From Escherichia phage K1E, in the sequence record NC_007637.1: a stretch of 45,251 nt of DNA. One strand, written 5' to 3'. Below are positions 1-45,251 of the stretch, one piece after another. Within the stretch, counting starts at the first letter, position 1; every line of letters starts with the position of its first letter. The position numbers were made by a program, and so were the translations under genes. The notes under the pieces were generated by a model, which worked only from the letters and a program-made list of their open reading frames with translations, was not told the origin of the DNA and searched no databases.

Positions 1-288
1 TCTCGCCCTCGCCCTCGCCGGATTTTCCCCATATGGGGCCGCGCTGCGGTTGGCTTGGGGATTGGGCTAGGCTGGGCCGTCTTCAACCTGCTGCCGCAGG
101 AAGCTCGATGGGTTGGCTGAGGGTTGCCGAGGGCTGCGCTTAGTGGTACACAAGTAGAACGCCTAGGAAGCGCTAGGGCACGCCTTAGTGTTGGACAAGG
201 TGATTGCCTTAGTGCAACCGTTTAGGGCTTACACAGGCCGTTTTAGGGCAATTCCTGAGTGTTTGACAGGGTGTGAGGGTGTGGGCTA
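1..288. repeat. Left direct terminal repeat (288 bp)
   Basis: The first 288 nt (tctcgccctcgccctcgccggattttcccc ... gggtgtgggcta) recur at 44964..45251 with a constant offset of 44963. Begins with three CTCGCC hexamers and is GC-rich. Confidence 0.85.
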
Positions 289-359: not shown

Positions 360-490
360 CCTTAGGTTATTCCTTGAGGGATGGCTTAGGTTAGCCTTAG
401 TGGGCTACCTTAGTTAAAGCCTTAGTGCTTAGCTTAGTATCAACTTAGTAGTGTACCTTAGTTAGTCTTAGTGCCAGACCTTAGTGATTG
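360..490. repeat. Array of about 10 short CTTAG(T/G) repeats just inside the left terminal repeat
   Basis: CCTTAGT/CTTAGG units at roughly 361, 385, 395, 408, 420, 433, 444, 457, 467 and 478, spaced 10-13 bp. Two more copies lie inside the repeat (183, 206) and three near the right repeat (about 44797-44838). Confidence 0.6.
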
Positions 491-714
491 CATAGCTAAA
501 GCTATAAGATGCAATTAGGTCGCGGTCGGTAGACCGCTGAGAGTAGGTAATAGTGATAAGATGCAGTAGGAGGAACACCAGAAACCTAGCCATCCTAGCC
601 TATCCTAGCTCTGTATCTATTGCTTTCCTTAGTCTCACATGTTAGACAACCTAGGTTTATCTTAGTAGTTGTGACATGTATCACATAAATAATCTATCTT
701 AGTTAAATTTAGTG

Positions 715-4103: not shown

Positions 4104-6731
4104 ATGCAAGACCTACACGCTATTCAACTTCAACTTGAAGAAGAAATGTTTAACGGCGGCATCCGTCGCTTTGAAGCGGACCAACAACGCCAGATTGCAT
4201 CCGGTAATGAATCAGACACGGCATGGAATCGCCGCTTATTGTCCGAACTAATCGCACCTATGGCGGAAGGTATTCAGGCTTACAAGGAAGAATACGAAGG
4301 CAAGAGAGGTCGTGCACCACGTGCATTAGCTTTCATTAACTGCGTAGGAAACGAAGTGGCAGCATATATCACCATGAAAATCGTTATGGATATGCTGAAT
4401 ACAGACGTTACCTTACAAGCTATCGCTATGAATGTAGCAGACCGCATCGAGGACCAAGTACGTTTTAGCAAGCTGGAAGGTCACGCAGCTAAGTACTTTG
4501 AGAAAGTGAAGAAGTCGCTTAAGGCTAGCAAGACTAAATCTTATCGTCATGCGCACAACGTAGCGGTAGTAGCTGAGAAATCTGTTGCTGACCGTGACGC
4601 GGATTTCTCCCGTTGGGAGGCATGGCCTAAAGACACCTTGCTGCAAATCGGTATGACCTTGCTCGAAATATTGGAGAATAGTGTATTCTTCAATGGTCAA
4701 CCTGTCTTCCTTCGTACCTTGCGCACTAACGGCGGAAAGCATGGTGTTTACTATTTACAGACCAGTGAACATGTTGGCGAGTGGATAACTGCATTTAAGG
4801 AACATGTAGCGCAGCTCAGCCCTGCCTATGCACCTTGCGTTATACCTCCCCGCCCTTGGGTATCACCTTTTAACGGTGGGTTTCATACTGAGAAAGTAGC
4901 AAGCCGTATTCGTCTGGTAAAAGGCAATCGTGAGCACGTCCGCAAGCTGACCAAAAAGCAAATGCCAGCCGTTTATAAGGCTGTTAACGCTTTGCAGGCA
5001 ACTAAGTGGCAGGTTAATAAAGAGGTTTTACAGGTTGTGGAGGACGTTATACGTCTAGACCTCGGCTATGGTGTACCTTCCTTTAAACCACTCATCGACC
5101 GTGAGAACAAGCCAGCTAATCCGGTGCCGTTAGAGTTCCAGCACCTGCGAGGCCGTGAACTGAAAGAAATGTTAACACCGGAACAATGGCAAGCCTTCAT
5201 CAACTGGAAAGGTGAATGCACCAAGCTGTATACCGCTGAGACTAAGCGCGGCAGCAAATCGGCGGCGACCGTCCGCATGGTAGGGCAGGCCCGTAAATAC
5301 AGCCAATTTGACGCAATATACTTCGTGTATGCTCTGGACAGCCGCAGCCGCGTCTACGCGCAATCTAGCACGCTCTCTCCGCAATCAAACGACTTAGGCA
5401 AGGCATTGCTCCGTTTTACCGAAGGGCAGCGTCTTGATAGCGCTGAGGCGCTTAAGTGGTTTTTGGTGAACGGGGCTAATAACTGGGGTTGGGATAAGAA
5501 AACTTTTGACGTGCGCACCGCTAACGTGCTGGATAGTGAATTTCAAGACATGTGCCGCGACATTGCAGCGGATCCGCTGACCTTCACTCAATGGGTAAAT
5601 GCCGACTCCCCTTACGGCTTCCTTGCATGGTGCTTTGAATATGCGCGTTATCTGGATGCACTGGATGAAGGCACGCAAGACCAATTCATGACGCACCTCC
5701 CAGTCCATCAAGATGGTAGTTGTTCTGGTATCCAGCACTACAGTGCTATGCTACGCGATGCAGTAGGTGCGAAAGCAGTAAACCTTAAGCCCTCTGACTC
5801 TCCTCAAGATATTTATGGTGCCGTTGCGCAGGTAGTAATTCAGAAGAATTATGCATACATGAATGCAGAGGATGCGGAAACCTTCACTTCTGGCAGCGTG
5901 ACTTTAACAGGTGCGGAACTGCGTAGTATGGCTAGTGCGTGGGATATGATAGGAATCACTCGCGGCCTGACCAAAAAGCCCGTAATGACACTACCTTATG
6001 GCAGCACACGTCTAACCTGCCGTGAGTCAGTGATTGATTATATCGTTGATTTAGAAGAAAAAGAGGCCCAACGGGCTATTGCGGAAGGGCGTACCGCCAA
6101 TCCTGTACACCCTTTTGATAATGACCGTAAAGACAGCCTGACACCTAGCGCAGCTTATAACTATATGACAGCTTTAATCTGGCCTTCTATCTCGGAAGTG
6201 GTTAAAGCCCCTATAGTGGCAATGAAAATGATTCGTCAGCTTGCACGTTTCGCAGCTAAAAGAAACGAAGGCTTAGAATATCCCTTACCAACTGGCTTCA
6301 TCTTGCAACAAAAGATAATGGCTACCGATATGCTCCGCGTATCCACTTGCTTGATGGGTGAAATCAAGATGAGTCTCCAGATTGAAACAGATGTAGTTGA
6401 TGAAACGGCAATGATGGGTGCGGCTGCTCCTAACTTCGTCCATGGTCACGATGCTAGCCACCTGATTCTGACTGTATGTGACCTAGTGGATAAAGGTATT
6501 ACATCCGTTGCAGTCATCCATGATTCTTTCGGTACTCATGCAGGACGTACCGCAGACCTGCGGGATAGCTTAAGGGAAGAAATGGTTAAGATGTATCAAA
6601 ACCATAATGCCCTGCAAAACCTGCTAGATGTGCACGAAGAGCGTTGGTTAGTAGACACCGGAATCCAAGTACCAGAGCAAGGGGAGTTTGACCTTAACGA
6701 AATCTTAGTTTCAGACTATTGTTTCGCATAA
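4104..6731 (+). CDS. Single-subunit DNA-dependent RNA polymerase (T7/SP6 type, 875 aa)
   Basis: AGGAG RBS; motifs [19 protein letters not shown] and C-terminal ...DYCFA parallel T7 RNAP ([19 protein letters not shown], ...FAFA). Confidence 0.95.
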
Positions 6732-6804
6732 TATTAATAGGCCATTCCTTCGGGAGTGGCTTTCTTTTACCTACTACCTGTAACATTTCATTAACATAAA
6801 ACGT

Positions 6805-6820
6805 GTCTCACATGTGAGAC
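6805..6820. repeat. Palindromic hairpin GTCTCACATGTGAGAC, copy A
   Basis: Perfect 16-bp palindrome followed by TTTATTT, immediately upstream of the promoter at 6824. Confidence 0.7.
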
Positions 6821-6823
6821 TTT

Positions 6824-6846: not shown

Positions 6847-6986
6847 CCGTCGGAGACGGGAAAGAAAGGGAAGATAAAGGATATAAAGGAAGTAATAGGT
6901 ATTAAAGGTTATATAGGTTATCTAGGAATACCTATTACCTTCTTCCTTCCTCTTATTACCACTTAGAGGAAGGGCAGACCTAGGTT
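6847..6986. promoter_or_regulatory. Candidate primary replication origin: AT/purine-rich dyad region between two phage promoters
   Basis: Purine-rich run, then 11-bp inverted repeat taataggtatt (6893..6903) / aatacctatta (6927..6937), then a pyrimidine-rich run. Position matches the T7 primary origin, just downstream of gene 1. Confidence 0.4.
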
Positions 6987-7002
6987 GTCTCACATGTGAG
7001 AC
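6987..7002. repeat. Palindromic hairpin GTCTCACATGTGAGAC, copy B
   Basis: Perfect 16-bp palindrome, immediately upstream of the promoter at 7008. Confidence 0.7.
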
Positions 7003-7007
7003 TTCGT

Positions 7008-9566: not shown

Positions 9567-9594
9567 GGGCTTGTCTCACATGTGAGACAGGCTC
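9567..9594 (+). terminator. Palindromic hairpin (core GTCTCACATGTGAGAC, 9573..9588) with U-rich tail; terminator-like
   Basis: gggcttgtctcacatgtgagacaggctc followed by ttatta. Confidence 0.5.
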
Positions 9595-10746: not shown

Positions 10747-10768
10747 GTTGTCTCACACGTGAGACAGC
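10747..10768 (+). terminator. Palindromic hairpin variant GTCTCACACGTGAGAC (10750..10765); terminator-like
   Basis: ggttgtctcacacgtgagacagcc followed by tttcatc; same arms as the other copies with a different central dinucleotide. Confidence 0.45.
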
Positions 10769-15900: not shown

Positions 15901-15916
15901 GTCTCACGTGTGAGAC
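15901..15916. repeat. Palindromic hairpin variant GTCTCACGTGTGAGAC
   Basis: Reverse complement of the 10750 variant; lies immediately upstream of the promoter at 15932. Confidence 0.6.
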
Positions 15917-15931
15917 AAATCGGTGTCCGGT

Positions 15932-32568: not shown

Positions 32569-32582
32569 TACCTAACTCAAGG

Positions 32583-32604
32583 CTTGTCTCACATGTGAGA
32601 CAGG
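32583..32604 (+). terminator. Palindromic hairpin (core GTCTCACATGTGAGAC, 32586..32601); terminator-like
   Basis: cttgtctcacatgtgagacagg followed by tcttta. Confidence 0.5.
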
Positions 32605-32632
32605 TCTTTATGATAGGCACTATGGAGGAACT

Positions 32633-36912: not shown

Positions 36913-37107
36913 ATGATTAACTCCGAACTGGTAGATAGTGGTGTGAAGCTTGCGCCACCTGCATTAGTCTCAGGTGGGTACTTCCTCGGTATCAGTTGGG
37001 ATAATTGGGTGTTAATAGCAACATTCATTTATACCGTGTTGCAAATTGGAGACTGGTTTTATACCAAGATTAAACTATGGAGGAAGAACCGTGAGCGTCC
37101 ACAATAA
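36913..37107 (+). CDS. Holin (T7 gp17.5-like, 64 aa)
   Basis: AAGGAGG RBS; single transmembrane segment NWVLIATFIYTVLQIGDWFYTKIKLWRK parallels T7 gp17.5 as I remember it. Confidence 0.65.
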   Translation: MINSELVDSGVKLAPPALVSGGYFLGISWDNWVLIATFIYTVLQIGDWFYTKIKLWRKNRERPQ

Positions 37108-37390
37108 ACATGCAGCTACAGAAGATGAGGTTGGCATCCTGCATGGTGCTATTACCAAAATCTTTAATAAGAAAGCACAGGCAATACTGGACACTATAGA
37201 AGAAGACCCAGATGCAGCACTGCATTTAGTCTCTGGTAAAGACATTGGAGCTATGTGTAAGTGGGTTCTTGATAATGGTATTACCGCTACACCTGCTGCA
37301 CAGCAGGAGGAGTCCAAGCTATCTAAGCGCCTCAAGGCTATCCGAGAGGCATCAAGTGGCAAGATTATTCAATTCACTAAGGAGGATTGA
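37091..37390 (+). CDS. Putative terminase small subunit (99 aa from GTG start)
   Basis: Track ORF starts at TTG 37046 inside the holin gene; proposed start is GTG 37091 with GGAGG 7 nt upstream; position matches T7 gene 18. Confidence 0.45.
   Translation: MSVHNKHAATEDEVGILHGAITKIFNKKAQAILDTIEEDPDAALHLVSGKDIGAMCKWVLDNGITATPAAQQEESKLSKRLKAIREASSGKIIQFTKED
37182..37204 (+). promoter_or_regulatory. Weak SP6-type promoter-like sequence inside coding sequence (+1 G at 37199)
   Basis: CAATACTGGACACTATAGAAGAA; perfect core with mismatches at -17 to -15. Confidence 0.4.
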
Positions 37391-38556
37391 TGGCTAAGGC
37401 AAGAGAATCACAAGCGGAGGCTCTTGCCAGATGGGAGATGCTACAGGAGTTACAGCAGACCTTTCCTTACACAGCGGAAGGTTTGCTTCTCTTTGCAGAC
37501 ACAGTTATTCATAACTTAATTGCAGGCAACCCTCATCTGATTCGTATGCAGGCTGATATCTTGAAGTTCCTATTCTACGGACACAAGTATCGCCTCATCG
37601 AAGCGCCTCGTGGTATCGCTAAGACAACACTATCAGCAATCTATACAGTATTCCGTATCATTCATGAACCGCATAAGCGTATCATGGTTGTATCCCAAAA
37701 CGCCAAGCGAGCAGAGGAAATCGCAGGTTGGGTAGTTAAAATCTTCCGTGGCCTAGACTTTCTTGAGTTTATGCTACCGGACATCTACGCAGGGGACCGT
37801 GCCTCAGTTAAGGCATTTGAGATTCATTACACCCTACGTGGCAGTGACAAGTCGCCTTCTGTGTCTTGTTACTCAATCGAAGCAGGTATGCAGGGTGCGC
37901 GTGCAGATATCATCCTAGCAGATGACGTTGAGTCAATGCAGAATGCTCGTACAGCGGCAGGACGTGCCTTGCTTGAGGAACTGACCAAGGAGTTTGAATC
38001 TATTAACCAGTTTGGTGATATTATCTACCTTGGTACTCCTCAGAACGTAAACTCTATCTACAATAACCTACCTGCTCGTGGTTACTCTGTTCGTATCTGG
38101 ACTGCACGTTATCCCTCAGTGGAGCAGGAGCAATGCTATGGTGACTTCCTTGCACCTATGATTGTGCAGGATATGAAGGACAACCCAGCACTTCGCTCAG
38201 GGTATGGCTTGGATGGCAATAGTGGTGCCCCTTGTGCACCTGAAATGTATGATGATGATGTGCTGATTGAGAAGGAAATCTCGCAGGGTGCGGCTAAGTT
38301 CCAGCTTCAGTTCATGCTTAACACTCGCATGATGGATGCTGACCGCTATCCGCTACGCCTGAACAACCTCATCTTCACTTCATTCGGTACAGAGGAAGTC
38401 CCTGTGATGCCTACGTGGAGCAATGATTCCATCAATATTATTGGCGATGCACCGAAGTATGGCAATAAGCCTACAGACTTCATGTATCGACCTGTGGCTC
38501 GCCCGTATGAATGGGGCGCTGTCACTCGTAAGATTATGTATATTGACCCTGCTGGT
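37390..38556 (+). CDS. Terminase large subunit, exon 1 (389 codons)
   Basis: ATG 37390 with AAGGAGG upstream; Walker A-like PRGIAKTT and Walker B ADIILADDVE; similarity to T7 gp19 stops at ...IDPAG, where an insertion begins. Confidence 0.85.
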
Positions 38557-39311
38557 AAACACCTCTGCCAGCGTAAAACCCTCTTAATTCGGTGGAACTC
38601 TCACTGAGACAATACCGAGCGAAGCCTGTTGCAATAACAGGAACGTGTAGAGACTAACTGTAAGGCCAAGCGGTCTGAAACAGAGGGAGGCGCAAGCCTA
38701 AGATATAGTCCGACCTACTAGGTGACTAGTAGAAGTTAAAGTAGCGAATTAACGTAACAATTGAAGGGAGTTAAATATGACAGAGCATAAAGTTTATCAT
38801 ATTCGTGTTGTTGGTGAAACTGATGTAATGCAAGGTTATATTGGTGTAACCTCCGATATTAAGAAGCGTATGAGAGAGCACAAGTGTGCAGGCCGTCTTT
38901 GTGATGGCCGCGAGTACGTTATCTTATTCACTGGTAGCAAAGAAGAGTGTTATGCACTAGAAGAGAAGCTACGCCCACATGACAACATGGGTTGGAATAA
39001 GGGTAAAGGTGGTTATCGCAAAGCAGGTAACATCGAGAAAGGTGAACGCATAAGTATTGCCACTGAAATCAAGAAAGGACAGCACTTGTCTGTTGCCACT
39101 GAGTTCAAGAAAGGCATGACACCTTACAACAAAGGTACTGGCAAAGATTACATATTCACTTCTCCAGATGGTGAAGAGTTTCTTGTAACTTGCATTACTG
39201 ACTTCTGTAAAGAGCACAACCTAACACCTCAGAATATGCGTAAGGTGGCACGTGGTTTACGTAAACACCACAAGGGTTGGCTCGCACGTCACGTTCAAAC
39301 CGGGAGGTAAG
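38557..39311 (+). mobile_element. Group I intron (candidate, self-splicing) carrying a homing endonuclease gene
   Basis: Conserved elements in canonical order: P AATTCGGTGGAA (38586..38597), Q AATACCGAGC (38611..38620), R GTAGAGACTAACTG (38647..38660), S AAGATATAGTCC (38700..38711). P1 pairing of exon GCTGGT (38551..38556) with GCCAGC (38567..38572). The 3' boundary is uncertain: G39311 or G39302. Confidence 0.75.
38777..39310 (+). CDS. GIY-YIG homing endonuclease (I-TevI-like, 177 aa) encoded within the intron
   Basis: AAGGGAG RBS; N-terminal KVYHIRVV...GYIGVTSDIKKRMREH (GIY-YIG with conserved Arg/Glu); central repeated GERISIATEIKKG / HLSVATEFKKG units; basic C-terminal DNA-binding-like region. 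Confidence 0.8.
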   Translation: MTEHKVYHIRVVGETDVMQGYIGVTSDIKKRMREHKCAGRLCDGREYVILFTGSKEECYALEEKLRPHDNMGWNKGKGGYRKAGNIEKGERISIATEIKKGQHLSVATEFKKGMTPYNKGTGKDYIFTSPDGEEFLVTCITDFCKEHNLTPQNMRKVARGLRKHHKGWLARHVQTGR

Positions 39312-40034
39312 AATGGGGATGAAACGGGTGTGGCTATCGTCTTCCTGCACGGCACATTCATTTATGTGTATCAGTGCTTTGGTGTGCCGGGAGGATACCG
39401 CGAATCGTCCCTGAATCGCATTGTGCAGGCCGCAAAGCAGGCAGGTGTTAAAGAGGTATTCATTGAAAAGAACTTTGGTCATGGCGCGTTTGAGGCCGTT
39501 ATAAAGCCATACTTTGAACGAGAGTGGCCTGTGACTCTGGAGGAAGATTACGCCACCGGACAGAAAGAGTTGCGTATCATTGAAACACTAGAGCCACTAA
39601 TGGCGGCCCACAGGCTCATCTTCAACGCAGAGATGGTCAAGTCTGATTTTGAGTCGGTACAGCACTATCCGCTTGAGCTACGCATGTCATACAGCCTTTT
39701 CAATCAAATGTCGAACATCACGATTGAGAAGAACAGCCTACGACACGATGACCGCTTAGACGCTCTGTATGGCGCTATACGGCAATTAACTTCTCAGATA
39801 GACTATGACGAGGTTACACGGATTAATCGCCTCAGAGCGCAGGAGATGCGCGATTACATCCATGCTATGAACACACCTCACCTCCGTAGGGCAATGCTCT
39901 ATGGAGATTATGGCACTGAGCGAAGAGTAACCAACACTTCCGTGGCTATGCAGCAAAGAGTATACGGTCAGAATTACAGGAGTAAATCGGCAAGCAGAAA
40001 TACACTTTCTGCAAGGATTTCAAGGACTTATTAA
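39312..40034 (+). CDS. Terminase large subunit, exon 2 (240 codons; may instead begin at 39303)
   Basis: NGDETGVAIVFLHG...EKNFGHGAFEAV...QKELRIIETLEPLMAAHRLIFN...HDDRLDAL parallels the C-terminal nuclease domain of T7 gp19. Confidence 0.85.
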   Translation, partial: NGDETGVAIVFLHGTFIYVYQCFGVPGGYRESSLNRIVQAAKQAGVKEVFIEKNFGHGAFEAVIKPYFEREWPVTLEEDYATGQKELRIIETLEPLMAAHRLIFNAEMVKSDFESVQHYPLELRMSYSLFNQMSNITIEKNSLRHDDRLDALYGAIRQLTSQIDYDEVTRINRLRAQEMRDYIHAMNTPHLRRAMLYGDYGTERRVTNTSVAMQQRVYGQNYRSKSASRNTLSARISRTY

Positions 40035-41716: not shown

Positions 41717-41739
41717 ATTTACTGGACACTATAGAAGAG
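41717..41739 (+). promoter_or_regulatory. SP6-type phage promoter upstream of the tailspike region (+1 G at 41734)
   Basis: ATTTACTGGACACTATAGAAGAG; perfect core. Confidence 0.8.
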
Positions 41740-42221: not shown

Positions 42222-44657
42222 ATGATTCAAAGACTAGGTTCTTCATTAGTTAAATTCAAGAGTAAAATAGCAGGTGCAATCTGGCGTAACTTGGATGACA
42301 AGCTCACCGAGGTTGTATCGCTTAAAGATTTTGGAGCCAAAGGTGATGGTAAGACAAACGACCAAGATGCAGTAAATGCAGCGATGGCTTCAGGTAAGAG
42401 AATTGACGGTGCTGGTGCTACTTACAAAGTATCATCTTTACCTGATATGGAGCGATTCTATAACACCCGCTTCGTATGGGAACGTTTAGCAGGTCAACCT
42501 CTTTACTATGTGAGTAAAGGTTTTATCAATGGTGAACTCTATAAAATCACGGATAACCCTTATTACAATGCTTGGCCTCAAGACAAAGCGTTTGTATATG
42601 AGAACGTGATATATGCACCTTACATGGGTAGCGACCGTCATGGTGTTAGTCGTCTGCATGTATCATGGGTTAAGTCTGGTGACGATGGTCAAACATGGTC
42701 TACTCCAGAGTGGTTAACTGATATGCATCCAGATTACCCTACAGTGAACTATCATTGTATGAGTATGGGTGTATGTCGCAACCGTCTGTTTGCCATGATT
42801 GAAACACGTACTTTAGCCAAGAACGAACTAACCAATTGTGCATTGTGGGATCGCCCTATGTCTCGTAGTCTGCATCTTACTGGTGGTATCACTAAGGCTG
42901 CAAATCAGAGATATGCAACAATCCATGTACCTGATCACGGACTCTTCGTTGGTGATTTTGTTAACTTCTCTAACTCTGCGGTAACAGGTGTATCTGGTGA
43001 TATGAAGGTTGCAACAGTAATAGATAAGGACAACTTCACGGTTCTTACACCTAACCAGCAGACTTCAGATTTGAATAACGCTGGAAAGAATTGGCACATG
43101 GGTACTTCTTTCCATAAGTCTCCGTGGCGTAAGACAGATCTTGGTCTAATCCCTCGTGTCACAGAGGTGCATAGCTTTGCTACTATTGATAACAATGGCT
43201 TTGTTATGGGCTATCATCAAGGTGATGTAGCTCCACGAGAAGTTGGGCTTTTCTACTTCCCTGATGCTTTCAATAGCCCATCTAATTATGTTCGTCGTCA
43301 GATACCATCTGAGTATGAACCAGATGCGGCAGAGCCATGCATCAAGTACTATGACGGTGTATTATACCTTATCACTCGTGGTACTCGTGGCGACCGACTA
43401 GGAAGCTCTCTGCATCGTAGTAGAGATATAGGTCAGACTTGGGAGTCACTAAGATTTCCACATAATGTGCATCATACTACTTTACCGTTTGCTAAGGTAG
43501 GAGATGACCTTATTATGTTTGGTTCAGAACGTGCAGAAAATGAATGGGAAGCAGGTGCACCAGATGATCGTTACAAGGCATCTTATCCTCGTACCTTCTA
43601 TGCACGATTGAATGTAAACAATTGGAATGCAGATGATATTGAATGGGTTAACATCACAGACCAAATCTATCAGGGTGACATTGTGAACTCTAGTGTAGGT
43701 GTAGGTTCTGTTGTAGTTAAAGACAGCTTCATTTACTATATCTTTGGTGGTGAAAACCATTTCAACCCAATGACTTATGGTGACAACAAAGACAAAGACC
43801 CATTTAAAGGTCATGGACACCCTACTGATATATACTGCTATAAGATGCAGATTGCAAATGACAATCGTGTATCTCGTAAGTTTACATATGGTGCAACTCC
43901 AGGTCAAGCTATACCTACTTTCATGGGTACTGATGGAATACGAAATATCCCTGCACCTTTGTATTTCTCAGATAACATTGTTACAGAGGATACTAAAGTT
44001 GGACACTTAACACTTAAAGCAAGCACAAGTGCCAATATACGATCTGAAATGCAGATGGAAGGTGAGTATGGCTTTATTGGCAAGTCTGTTCCAAAGGACA
44101 AACCAACAGGTCAACGTTTGATTATTTGTGGTGGAGAAAGGACTTCATCATCTTCAGGTGCACAGATAACTTTGCACGGTTCTAATTCAAGTAAGGCTAA
44201 GCGTATCACTTATAACGGAAACGAGCACCTATTCCAAGGTGCACCAATCATGCCTGCTGTAGATAACCAGTTTGCTGCTGGTGGACCTAGTAACCGATTC
44301 ACTACCATCTACCTAGGCAGTGACCCTGTTACAACTTCAGATGCTGACCACAAGTACGGTATCTCTAGTATTAATACCAAGGTGTTAAAGGCTTGGAGCA
44401 GGGTTGGTTTTAAACAGTATGGTTTGAATAGTGAAGCAGAGAGGAACCTTGATAGCATACACTTCGGTGTCTTGGCTCAGGATATTGTAGCTGCTTTTGA
44501 AGCTGAAGGGTTGGATGCCATTAAGTATGGAATTGTGTCCTTCGAAGAAGGTAGGTATGGTGTGAGATATAGTGAAGTTCTAATCCTAGAGGCTGCCTAT
44601 ACTCGCCATCGTCTTGATAAATTAGAGGAGATGTATGCCACTAATAAAATCAGTTAA
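42222..44657 (+). CDS. Tailspike endosialidase (endo-N-acetylneuraminidase) with C-terminal intramolecular chaperone domain (811 aa)
   Basis: AAGGAGG RBS; sialidase Asp-boxes SGDDGQTW and SRDIGQTW; C-terminal region (about 44300..44657) resembles tailspike chaperone (S74-type) domains; overall sequence recognised from memory as K1-phage endosialidase. Confidence 0.8.
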   Translation: MIQRLGSSLVKFKSKIAGAIWRNLDDKLTEVVSLKDFGAKGDGKTNDQDAVNAAMASGKRIDGAGATYKVSSLPDMERFYNTRFVWERLAGQPLYYVSKGFINGELYKITDNPYYNAWPQDKAFVYENVIYAPYMGSDRHGVSRLHVSWVKSGDDGQTWSTPEWLTDMHPDYPTVNYHCMSMGVCRNRLFAMIETRTLAKNELTNCALWDRPMSRSLHLTGGITKAANQRYATIHVPDHGLFVGDFVNFSNSAVTGVSGDMKVATVIDKDNFTVLTPNQQTSDLNNAGKNWHMGTSFHKSPWRKTDLGLIPRVTEVHSFATIDNNGFVMGYHQGDVAPREVGLFYFPDAFNSPSNYVRRQIPSEYEPDAAEPCIKYYDGVLYLITRGTRGDRLGSSLHRSRDIGQTWESLRFPHNVHHTTLPFAKVGDDLIMFGSERAENEWEAGAPDDRYKASYPRTFYARLNVNNWNADDIEWVNITDQIYQGDIVNSSVGVGSVVVKDSFIYYIFGGENHFNPMTYGDNKDKDPFKGHGHPTDIYCYKMQIANDNRVSRKFTYGATPGQAIPTFMGTDGIRNIPAPLYFSDNIVTEDTKVGHLTLKASTSANIRSEMQMEGEYGFIGKSVPKDKPTGQRLIICGGERTSSSSGAQITLHGSNSSKAKRITYNGNEHLFQGAPIMPAVDNQFAAGGPSNRFTTIYLGSDPVTTSDADHKYGISSINTKVLKAWSRVGFKQYGLNSEAERNLDSIHFGVLAQDIVAAFEAEGLDAIKYGIVSFEEGRYGVRYSEVLILEAAYTRHRLDKLEEMYATNKIS

Positions 44658-44963
44658 GCAATCTGCTGCACGCCAGAACACATAAGAACTTATACAATCA
44701 GGACGTGACCCTAAGCAGGCATACGCCATTGCCAAGGATGTACAACGTCGTGCCATGAAGAAACCTTCTGCATCTTCTGCGTAAGCAGGTTAATATCTTA
44801 GTGTACACAAGGGCAGACTTAGGTTTGCTCTTAGTGTAATCCAAGGAGGTAACATGCAAGAGGAGAATTGGGATGTGTAATGTTGGATATGGAGAAGGTT
44901 GAACCTCAGTGTTGTACAAGGATTAACCAAAGTAAAAATTTTGATATAGGCGTGTGTCAGCTC

Positions 44964-45251
44964 TCTCGCCCTCGCCCTCGCCGGATTTTCCCCATATGGG
45001 GCCGCGCTGCGGTTGGCTTGGGGATTGGGCTAGGCTGGGCCGTCTTCAACCTGCTGCCGCAGGAAGCTCGATGGGTTGGCTGAGGGTTGCCGAGGGCTGC
45101 GCTTAGTGGTACACAAGTAGAACGCCTAGGAAGCGCTAGGGCACGCCTTAGTGTTGGACAAGGTGATTGCCTTAGTGCAACCGTTTAGGGCTTACACAGG
45201 CCGTTTTAGGGCAATTCCTGAGTGTTTGACAGGGTGTGAGGGTGTGGGCTA
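44964..45251. repeat. Right direct terminal repeat (288 bp)
   Basis: Copy of 1..288 running to the last base of the window; matched by eye over the visible stretches. Confidence 0.85.

Follow-up and report, generated by a model that had tools for sequence, protein, structure and literature searches.

The 45,251-nt sequence of Escherichia phage K1E (NC_007637.1), which was analyzed in full and is referred to here as the window, begins and ends with the same 288 nt. This raises the question of whether these positions represent the physical ends of the virion chromosome, generated by a maturation mechanism as in phage T7, or an overlap that was introduced during assembly. In an exact self-comparison, prefix and suffix of the window agreed over at most 288 nt, with positions 1 to 288 matching positions 44964 to 45251 on the + strand at 288 of 288 positions with 0 mismatches and 0 indels. 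We refer to the two copies as the left (1 to 288) and right (44964 to 45251) direct terminal repeats (DTRs). The next direct-repeat families in the window are 31 to 40 nt long with 60 to 100% identity and are mostly phage promoters; a chance or low-complexity repeat is ruled out by the exact 288-nt match, as the other direct repeats do not exceed 40 nt. The repeat has a G+C content of 59.4% compared to 45.1% genome-wide, and its left end reads T followed by three CTCGCC hexamers (at 2, 8, and 14) and GG. These results match the initial annotation, which described a GC-rich repeat of the first 288 nt recurring as the last 288 nt and opening with three CTCGCC hexamers, except that the hexamers start at base 2 and not at base 1. 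We note that perfect agreement between the two copies (100%) is in part built into a database record, as the repeat is first determined by the depositors and then entered at both ends, and that it is a weak test by itself.

Vectrevirus comprises the K1E/K1-5 group of SP6-like Autographiviridae and belongs to the T7 supergroup. Using nucleotide searches, we found that the window is 92 to 97% identical to other Vectrevirus genomes over 20 kb. Based on an exact-sequence look-up, three proteins of the window show complete identity to K1E proteins, the RNA polymerase to gp7 (CAJ29407.1), the endosialidase tailspike to gp47 (CAJ29458.1), and a 177-aa homing endonuclease to gp40.5 (CAJ29450.1), which identifies the window as the published K1E genome. 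The large open reading frames (ORFs) are on the + strand with a gene order collinear with that of K1-5, and collinearity with mutPK1A2 and K1-5 extends over the entire window, in agreement with the previous description of the window as a complete genome. The record of another K1E isolate in INPHARED (KY435490.1; 44,246 bp) is 96.5% identical and has the repeat collapsed. Similarly, many records of relatives are permuted with an internal, single-copy repeat because short-read assembly collapses the DTR, a known problem in T7-like phages, where the repeat can also be misplaced (PMC10438801).

We compared the terminal repeats of nine genomes, i.e., K1E, six further Vectrevirus records, SP6, and T7. 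Exact terminal repeats were present in all nine, ranging in length from 160 to 304 bp (T7, 160 bp; SP6, 174 bp; K1-5, 234 bp; Mt1B1_P10 and KAW1A4500, 267 bp each; P3a, 283 bp; mutPK1A2, 286 bp; K1E, 288 bp; and VEc3, 304 bp). The repeats of the K1E-like phages and SP6 vary in length (174 to 304 bp) and are 76 to 96% identical, and yet both boundaries are at conserved positions. Specifically, the repeats of the K1E-like phages all start no more than 2 bases from one point, ...CAGCTC/TCTCGCCCTCGCCCTCGCCGG (a slash marks the repeat boundary), and they share the right end TTGACAGGGTG...GTGGGCTA/TCTGTTCGTTT. Including SP6, the repeats start with (TC)TCGCC or TCTCGGC and end with GGGCTA/TCTGTT, while the T7 repeat starts with TCTCACAG and ends with CCCT/ATCTGTT. 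T7, SP6, and K1-5 have unique, non-permuted virion DNA ends, as shown experimentally. In the SP6-like phage UAB_Phi78, Bal31 removes two restriction fragments together, and run-off sequencing identified a 179-bp repeat (PMC4837284). The K1E terminal repeats have been cited before as 92 to 96% identical to those of phages R, B, C, D, and K (PMC5582158); here, the identities were 95.8% (phages C, D, and R), 91.7% (phage B), and 91.6% (phage K), in agreement with that range. Thus, the observation that K1E ends in 288-bp repeats is correct and already known, and these ends are ordinary T7-type DTRs.

We then aligned the junction, composed of the right-unique sequence, the repeat, and the left-unique sequence, from ten genomes, two of which are permuted single-repeat records. 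The mean column identity was 0.61 further upstream in the right-unique sequence, 0.92 in the last 45 nt before the repeat, and 0.93 in repeat bases 1 to 38. It was 0.64 in bases 39 to 155, which are variable and hold the indels that set repeat length, 0.83 in the conserved right half (bases 156 to 288), 0.97 in the 12 nt after the repeat, and 0.41 in the following 55 nt. Both repeat boundaries, accordingly, are on conservation peaks (0.92 to 0.97) with a drop in between, in the repeat middle. Sites of recognition or cleavage would be expected to give such peaks, whereas an arbitrary overlap would not. Together with the conserved positions of the boundaries in the relatives and SP6, they support the earlier claim that K1E has true terminal repeats.

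Within the conserved island at the left cut, the three tandem CTCGCC hexamers and the following GG (2 to 19; + strand) are invariant among the Vectrevirus relatives, and the perfect palindrome CCCCATATGGGG (27 to 38) is conserved in the junction alignment. T7 has the palindrome CCCCCATAGGGGG (26 to 38) at the same distance from its end. The conserved right-unique block TAACCAAAGTAAAAATTTTGATATAGGCGTGTGTCAGCTC (44923 to 44963; + strand) abuts the right DTR and is a candidate for the recognition or cleavage context of the left-end cut. In a scan of 44300 to 45251 and 1 to 800 for inverted repeats, we found no convincing structure near the right end that would resemble the T7 "hairpin end" intermediate; there were only palindromes of 8 to 11 nt and one 9-nt pair (203 to 211 and 244 to 252) in the repeat. 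We also observed that several relatives, for example, Mt1B1_P10, UTI89UKE2, and EC120, have coding sequences for "hypothetical proteins" annotated within or across the repeat or the junction (at 64 to 276 in MT496971.1). As conservation in this region follows a noncoding pattern, these calls are probably spurious.

It is possible, if somewhat unlikely, that the repeats are real and that the deposited boundaries are off by 1 to 2 nt, in which case the repeat would be 286 to 287 bp long, ending with ...GGGCT and/or starting with CTCGCC. The records of the relatives start with TCTCGCC, CTCGCC, or TCGCC even though the junction CAGCTCTCTCGCC is identical, and the T7 repeat stops one base further to the left with respect to ATCTGTT. 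Also, run-off sequencing adds a non-templated A (PMC4925675); at the right end, this base would appear as the final A of GGGCTA, and at the left end, as the leading T. On the other hand, seven Vectrevirus records and SP6 all end with ...GGGCTA, with the qualification that the ends of several of these records were perhaps assigned from K1-5, SP6, or K1E by homology, a described practice (PMC10438801, PMC4925675), and are not fully independent. Altogether, each K1E boundary may be uncertain by 1 to 2 nt, and the true repeat may be 286 to 288 bp long.

The right boundary coincides with the heptamer ATCTGTT (288 to 294; + strand), which straddles the end of the left DTR copy and is preceded by T (TATCTGTT, 287 to 294). 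This heptamer forms the core of the class II signal at which T7 RNA polymerase pauses or terminates, and it is strictly conserved; one natural copy of the signal is located at the T7 concatemer junction, and the signal requires A, C, or T before the heptamer. In nine of nine genomes, including SP6 and T7, ATCTGTT starts at the last repeat base or one base after it, and the flanks of the right boundary in T7 and K1E have no likeness to each other apart from this heptamer. ATCTGTT is not over-represented genome-wide (7 observed compared to 8.2 expected), and its significance therefore derives from its position and conservation. Leaving conservation out of the count, the chance that this exact heptamer on the + strand straddles one given boundary is ~4e-4.

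The enzyme that would be expected, by analogy with T7, to read this signal is K1E gp7, a single-subunit RNA polymerase (4104 to 6731, + strand; PF00940 and PF14700; CAJ29407.1). Searching for the SP6-type phage promoter consensus ATTTACYGGACACTATAGAAGR with up to 3 mismatches, we identified 12 promoters compared to 0 expected by chance. All 12 are directed rightward on the + strand (6824, 7008, 9342, 10190, 13925, 14694, 15932, 19097, 24431, 37182, 40033, and 41717), and the last extends from 41717 to 41738. A weaker variant is present at 2779. Between the last promoter (41717) and the right end, we detected no terminator-like hairpin on the + strand. With rightward promoters and no + strand terminator after 41717, late transcription on a concatemer would cross the junction and run into ATCTGTT. 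An analogue of T7 phiOR was not found, i.e., the 3.2 kb before the right repeat are devoid of phage promoters, while phiOR is located 549 bp before the right repeat of T7.

Several other putative transcription elements were observed in the window. The palindrome TGTCTCACATGTGAGACA occurs at 6804 to 6821, 6986 to 7003, 9572 to 9589, 10749 to 10766, 15901 to 15918, and 32585 to 32602, with a variant at 631 to 648. It frequently precedes a phage promoter at a short distance and is predicted to form a stable hairpin (−17.6 kcal/mol and z = −4.5 at 32575 to 32612). It is probably a terminator for the phage polymerase or an RNA processing site. In the early region, an element around GCTCTTTAACAAT is present at 887 to 917, 1656 to 1702, 1948 to 2014, and 2211 to 2278. 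For 1954 to 2008, the predicted structure is a long stem interrupted by a large internal loop (−33.8 kcal/mol; z = −7.0), which resembles the T7-type RNase III sites between early genes. Finally, the two best sigma-70 matches in the left 3.2 kb (715 to 743 and 1601 to 1629; TTGACA-17-TACATT, 10/12) are probably early promoters for the host RNA polymerase, analogous to T7 A1 to A3.

As an alternative to pausing by the phage polymerase at the junction, the repeats could be real and ATCTGTT could be conserved because it is part of the terminase cleavage site or of a promoter for the host polymerase. A sigma-70 −35-like TTGACA (263 to 268; + strand) is invariant, also in SP6, and located 17 to 18 nt upstream of CTATCTG/TATCTG, and the T7 concatemer junction was reported to be a context-dependent Escherichia coli promoter that functions via an extended TGn −10 element (2026 preprint). 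Moreover, the VSW-3 RNA polymerase does not respond to ATCTGTT, and K1E has no phiOR-like promoter in the vicinity of the right repeat. However, K1E lacks the extended TGn −10 element that T7 has, the −10-like hexamers (CTATCT and TATCTG) are poor candidates, and a sigma-70 promoter composed of TTGACA (263 to 268) and the boundary site was absent from the output of the promoter scan. Importantly, the heptamer is identical in T7, SP6, and the K1E-type phages despite the fully diverged flanks of T7 and K1E, which fits with a signal that is read by a conserved polymerase. We therefore consider the absence of coupling to pausing distinctly unlikely and favor the reading in which ATCTGTT is a pause signal for the phage polymerase.

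The window encodes a T7-type terminase. The gene for the small subunit (37091 to 37390; + strand) belongs to the T7 gp18 family (PF11123 DNA_Packaging_2, E = 5e-16; phrog_891, E = 1e-25). The large subunit is encoded by two exons on the + strand: exon 1 (37390 to 38556) aligns to nt 1 to 1167 of K1-5 gene 40, and exon 2 (39303 to 40034) aligns to nt 1168 to 1899 and encodes the nuclease domain (PF22530 Terminase-T7_RNaseH-like, E = 3e-33). The spliced product is 632 aa long with no internal stop and matches PDB 8dgc_E ("Terminase, large subunit"; E = 2e-82) and PDB 4bij_A ("DNA maturase B"; E = 7e-75), the latter of which is T7 gp19. The presence of T7-type small and large subunits and of ATCTGTT exactly at the right repeat edge, as in T7, is consistent with the T7-like packaging from concatemers that was suggested in the initial annotation.

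A group I intron of 746 nt separates the two exons of the large terminase gene (38557 to 39302; Rfam RF00028, 63.6 bits at 38525 to 38732). Its borders are canonical, in that the 5' exon ends in T and the intron ends in G, and it carries the ORF for the 177-aa GIY-YIG/NUMOD-like homing endonuclease (38777 to 39310; K1E gp40.5). The insertion is absent from K1-5 and mutPK1A2 at exactly this point of the terminase gene; vB_EcoP_C has the insertion, and its gene is annotated as two "terminase" coding sequences.

That K1E is a headful-packaged phage with a circularly permuted genome, and that the 288-bp duplication is the overlap left by linearization, is exceedingly improbable even though many relatives have been deposited as permuted records with an internal, single-copy repeat and the identity of the two copies within a record is uninformative, and we ruled it out because such an overlap would not share homologous start and end points across SP6- and K1E-type genomes with repeats of differing length and sequence, would not coincide with two conservation peaks, and would not end at ATCTGTT exactly like T7, the ends of which are biochemically defined, and because the terminase is of the T7 type and not of the headful (P22/T4) type, a line of argument also drawn from terminase trees (PMC5582158, PMC4837284), and the ends of the relative UAB_Phi78 were shown to be fixed by Bal31 digestion and run-off mapping (PMC4837284).

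Altogether, the window is very probably the complete K1E virion chromosome with exact 288-bp DTRs that is matured as in T7 and T3. By homology with these two phages, from which we infer concatemer formation, pausing, the base-exact cleavage positions, and repeat duplication in K1E, replication and recombination through the repeats would generate head-to-tail concatemers in which each junction has one copy of the repeat. The phage RNA polymerase, transcribing rightward, would then cross the junction and pause at ATCTGTT at the right repeat edge, and the T7-type terminase would cut at the two conserved boundary sites, i.e., ...CAGCTC/TCTCGCC to generate the left end and ...GGGCT(A)/TCTGTT to generate the right end. 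The single repeat of the junction would be copied by DNA synthesis, such that each packaged genome has both copies; these would be identical because they are copied from one template.

The initial annotation also noted short units in the repeat that continue into the unique sequence, and this is the case: CCTTAGTG occurs twice in the repeat (183 and 207) and three times in the unique sequence (395, 420, and 479), and GCTTAGTG is present at 138 in the repeat. The underlying unit is the core CTTAGT, which in 1 to 720 occurs in 14 copies on the + strand and 0 copies on the − strand compared to 0.23 expected from its density elsewhere in the genome (Poisson P ~1e-20). Three CTTAGT(G) units are located in the DTR (139 to 213, + strand; units at 139, 184, and 208) and are kept in 6 to 9 of the 10 genomes. 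Eight units with a spacing of 10 to 13 nt follow at 396 to 485 (+ strand), each of which is kept in 9 to 10 of the 10 genomes; here, the CTTAGT cores are 99% conserved compared to 83% for the spacers. Three more units are located at 628 to 703 (+ strand; units at 628, 661, and 698) before the first strong sigma-70 promoter. Lastly, two CTTAGTG units (44797 to 44836, + strand; units at 44797 and 44830) are located just left of the right DTR.

A noncoding block at 491 to 660, upstream of the first strong sigma-70 promoter, has a column identity of 92% among Vectrevirus and SP6. It contains a hairpin at 491 to 505 (CATAGCT-AAA-GCTATA), which in five relatives is replaced by CACATGC-AA-GCATGT, such that three base pairs have compensatory double changes. 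The block also contains an invariant hairpin at 523 to 538 (GCGGTC-GGTA-GACCGC) and two copies of TAAGATGCA(A/G)T (at 505 and 557). No Rfam family was detected in 1 to 1000 at E ≤ 1. The units of the array are spaced by approximately one helical turn and have invariant cores. On the basis of these sequence features, it is a tentative and rather doubtful idea that the CTTAGT units and the 170-bp noncoding block with the hairpins at 491 to 505 and 523 to 538 form a cis-acting platform for protein binding. If so, this platform could function in terminase loading or in the control of genome entry.

K1E closely resembles the SP6/K1-5 group in its ends. The repeats have the same start with three hexamers and GG, a palindrome near 27 to 38, and the same right end, and the genomes have the same conserved block before the right copy as well as the same CTTAGT arrays. 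The differences are in repeat length, which varies via indels in the variable middle (39 to 155), and in the hexamers of SP6, which read CTCGGC CTCGGC CTCGCC, i.e., CTCGGC in two of three, compared to three CTCGCC hexamers in K1E. Because the K1E genome is published and the repeats and T7-like packaging logic are textbook knowledge for this phage group, our observations have little discovery value. In practice, the junction signals, the ends, and the CTTAGT arrays are landmarks with which permuted assemblies of K1E-, K1-5-, and SP6-like phages can be oriented and the missing ~290 bp restored.

Compared to T7, the K1E repeat is longer (288 versus 160 bp), and there is no detectable homology beyond the shared motifs. 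The repeat unit is CCTAAAG in T7 and CTTAGT(G) in K1E, and ATCTGTT starts one base after the T7 repeat, while in K1E, its first base is the last of the deposited repeat. Nevertheless, both phages have an exact short DTR with TCTC at bases 1 to 4 and ATCTGTT at the right edge, a palindrome composed of a C-run, ATA, and a G-run (26 to 38 in T7 and 27 to 38 in K1E), a T7-type terminase, and a single-subunit RNA polymerase. The T7 CCTAAAG arrays comprise three units in the repeat, eight after it (175 to 332), and two before the right DTR (39671 and 39700), and the CTTAGT layout in K1E parallels this strand-specific arrangement with three units in the DTR, eight with a spacing of ~13 nt after it, and two before the right copy. 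By this analogy in layout, we take it that the CTTAGT arrays are the K1E counterpart of the CCTAAAG arrays. To our knowledge, the role of the T7 arrays has never been settled, and a full-text search of the literature for CTTAGT and CCTAAAG arrays gave only unrelated papers. Thus, the design of the T7 junction, i.e., a TCTC end, a palindrome at ~26 to 38, ATCTGTT, and 3 + 8 + 2 short repeats, has been retained in the estranged SP6 branch despite an otherwise complete divergence, which supports a common maturation mechanism.
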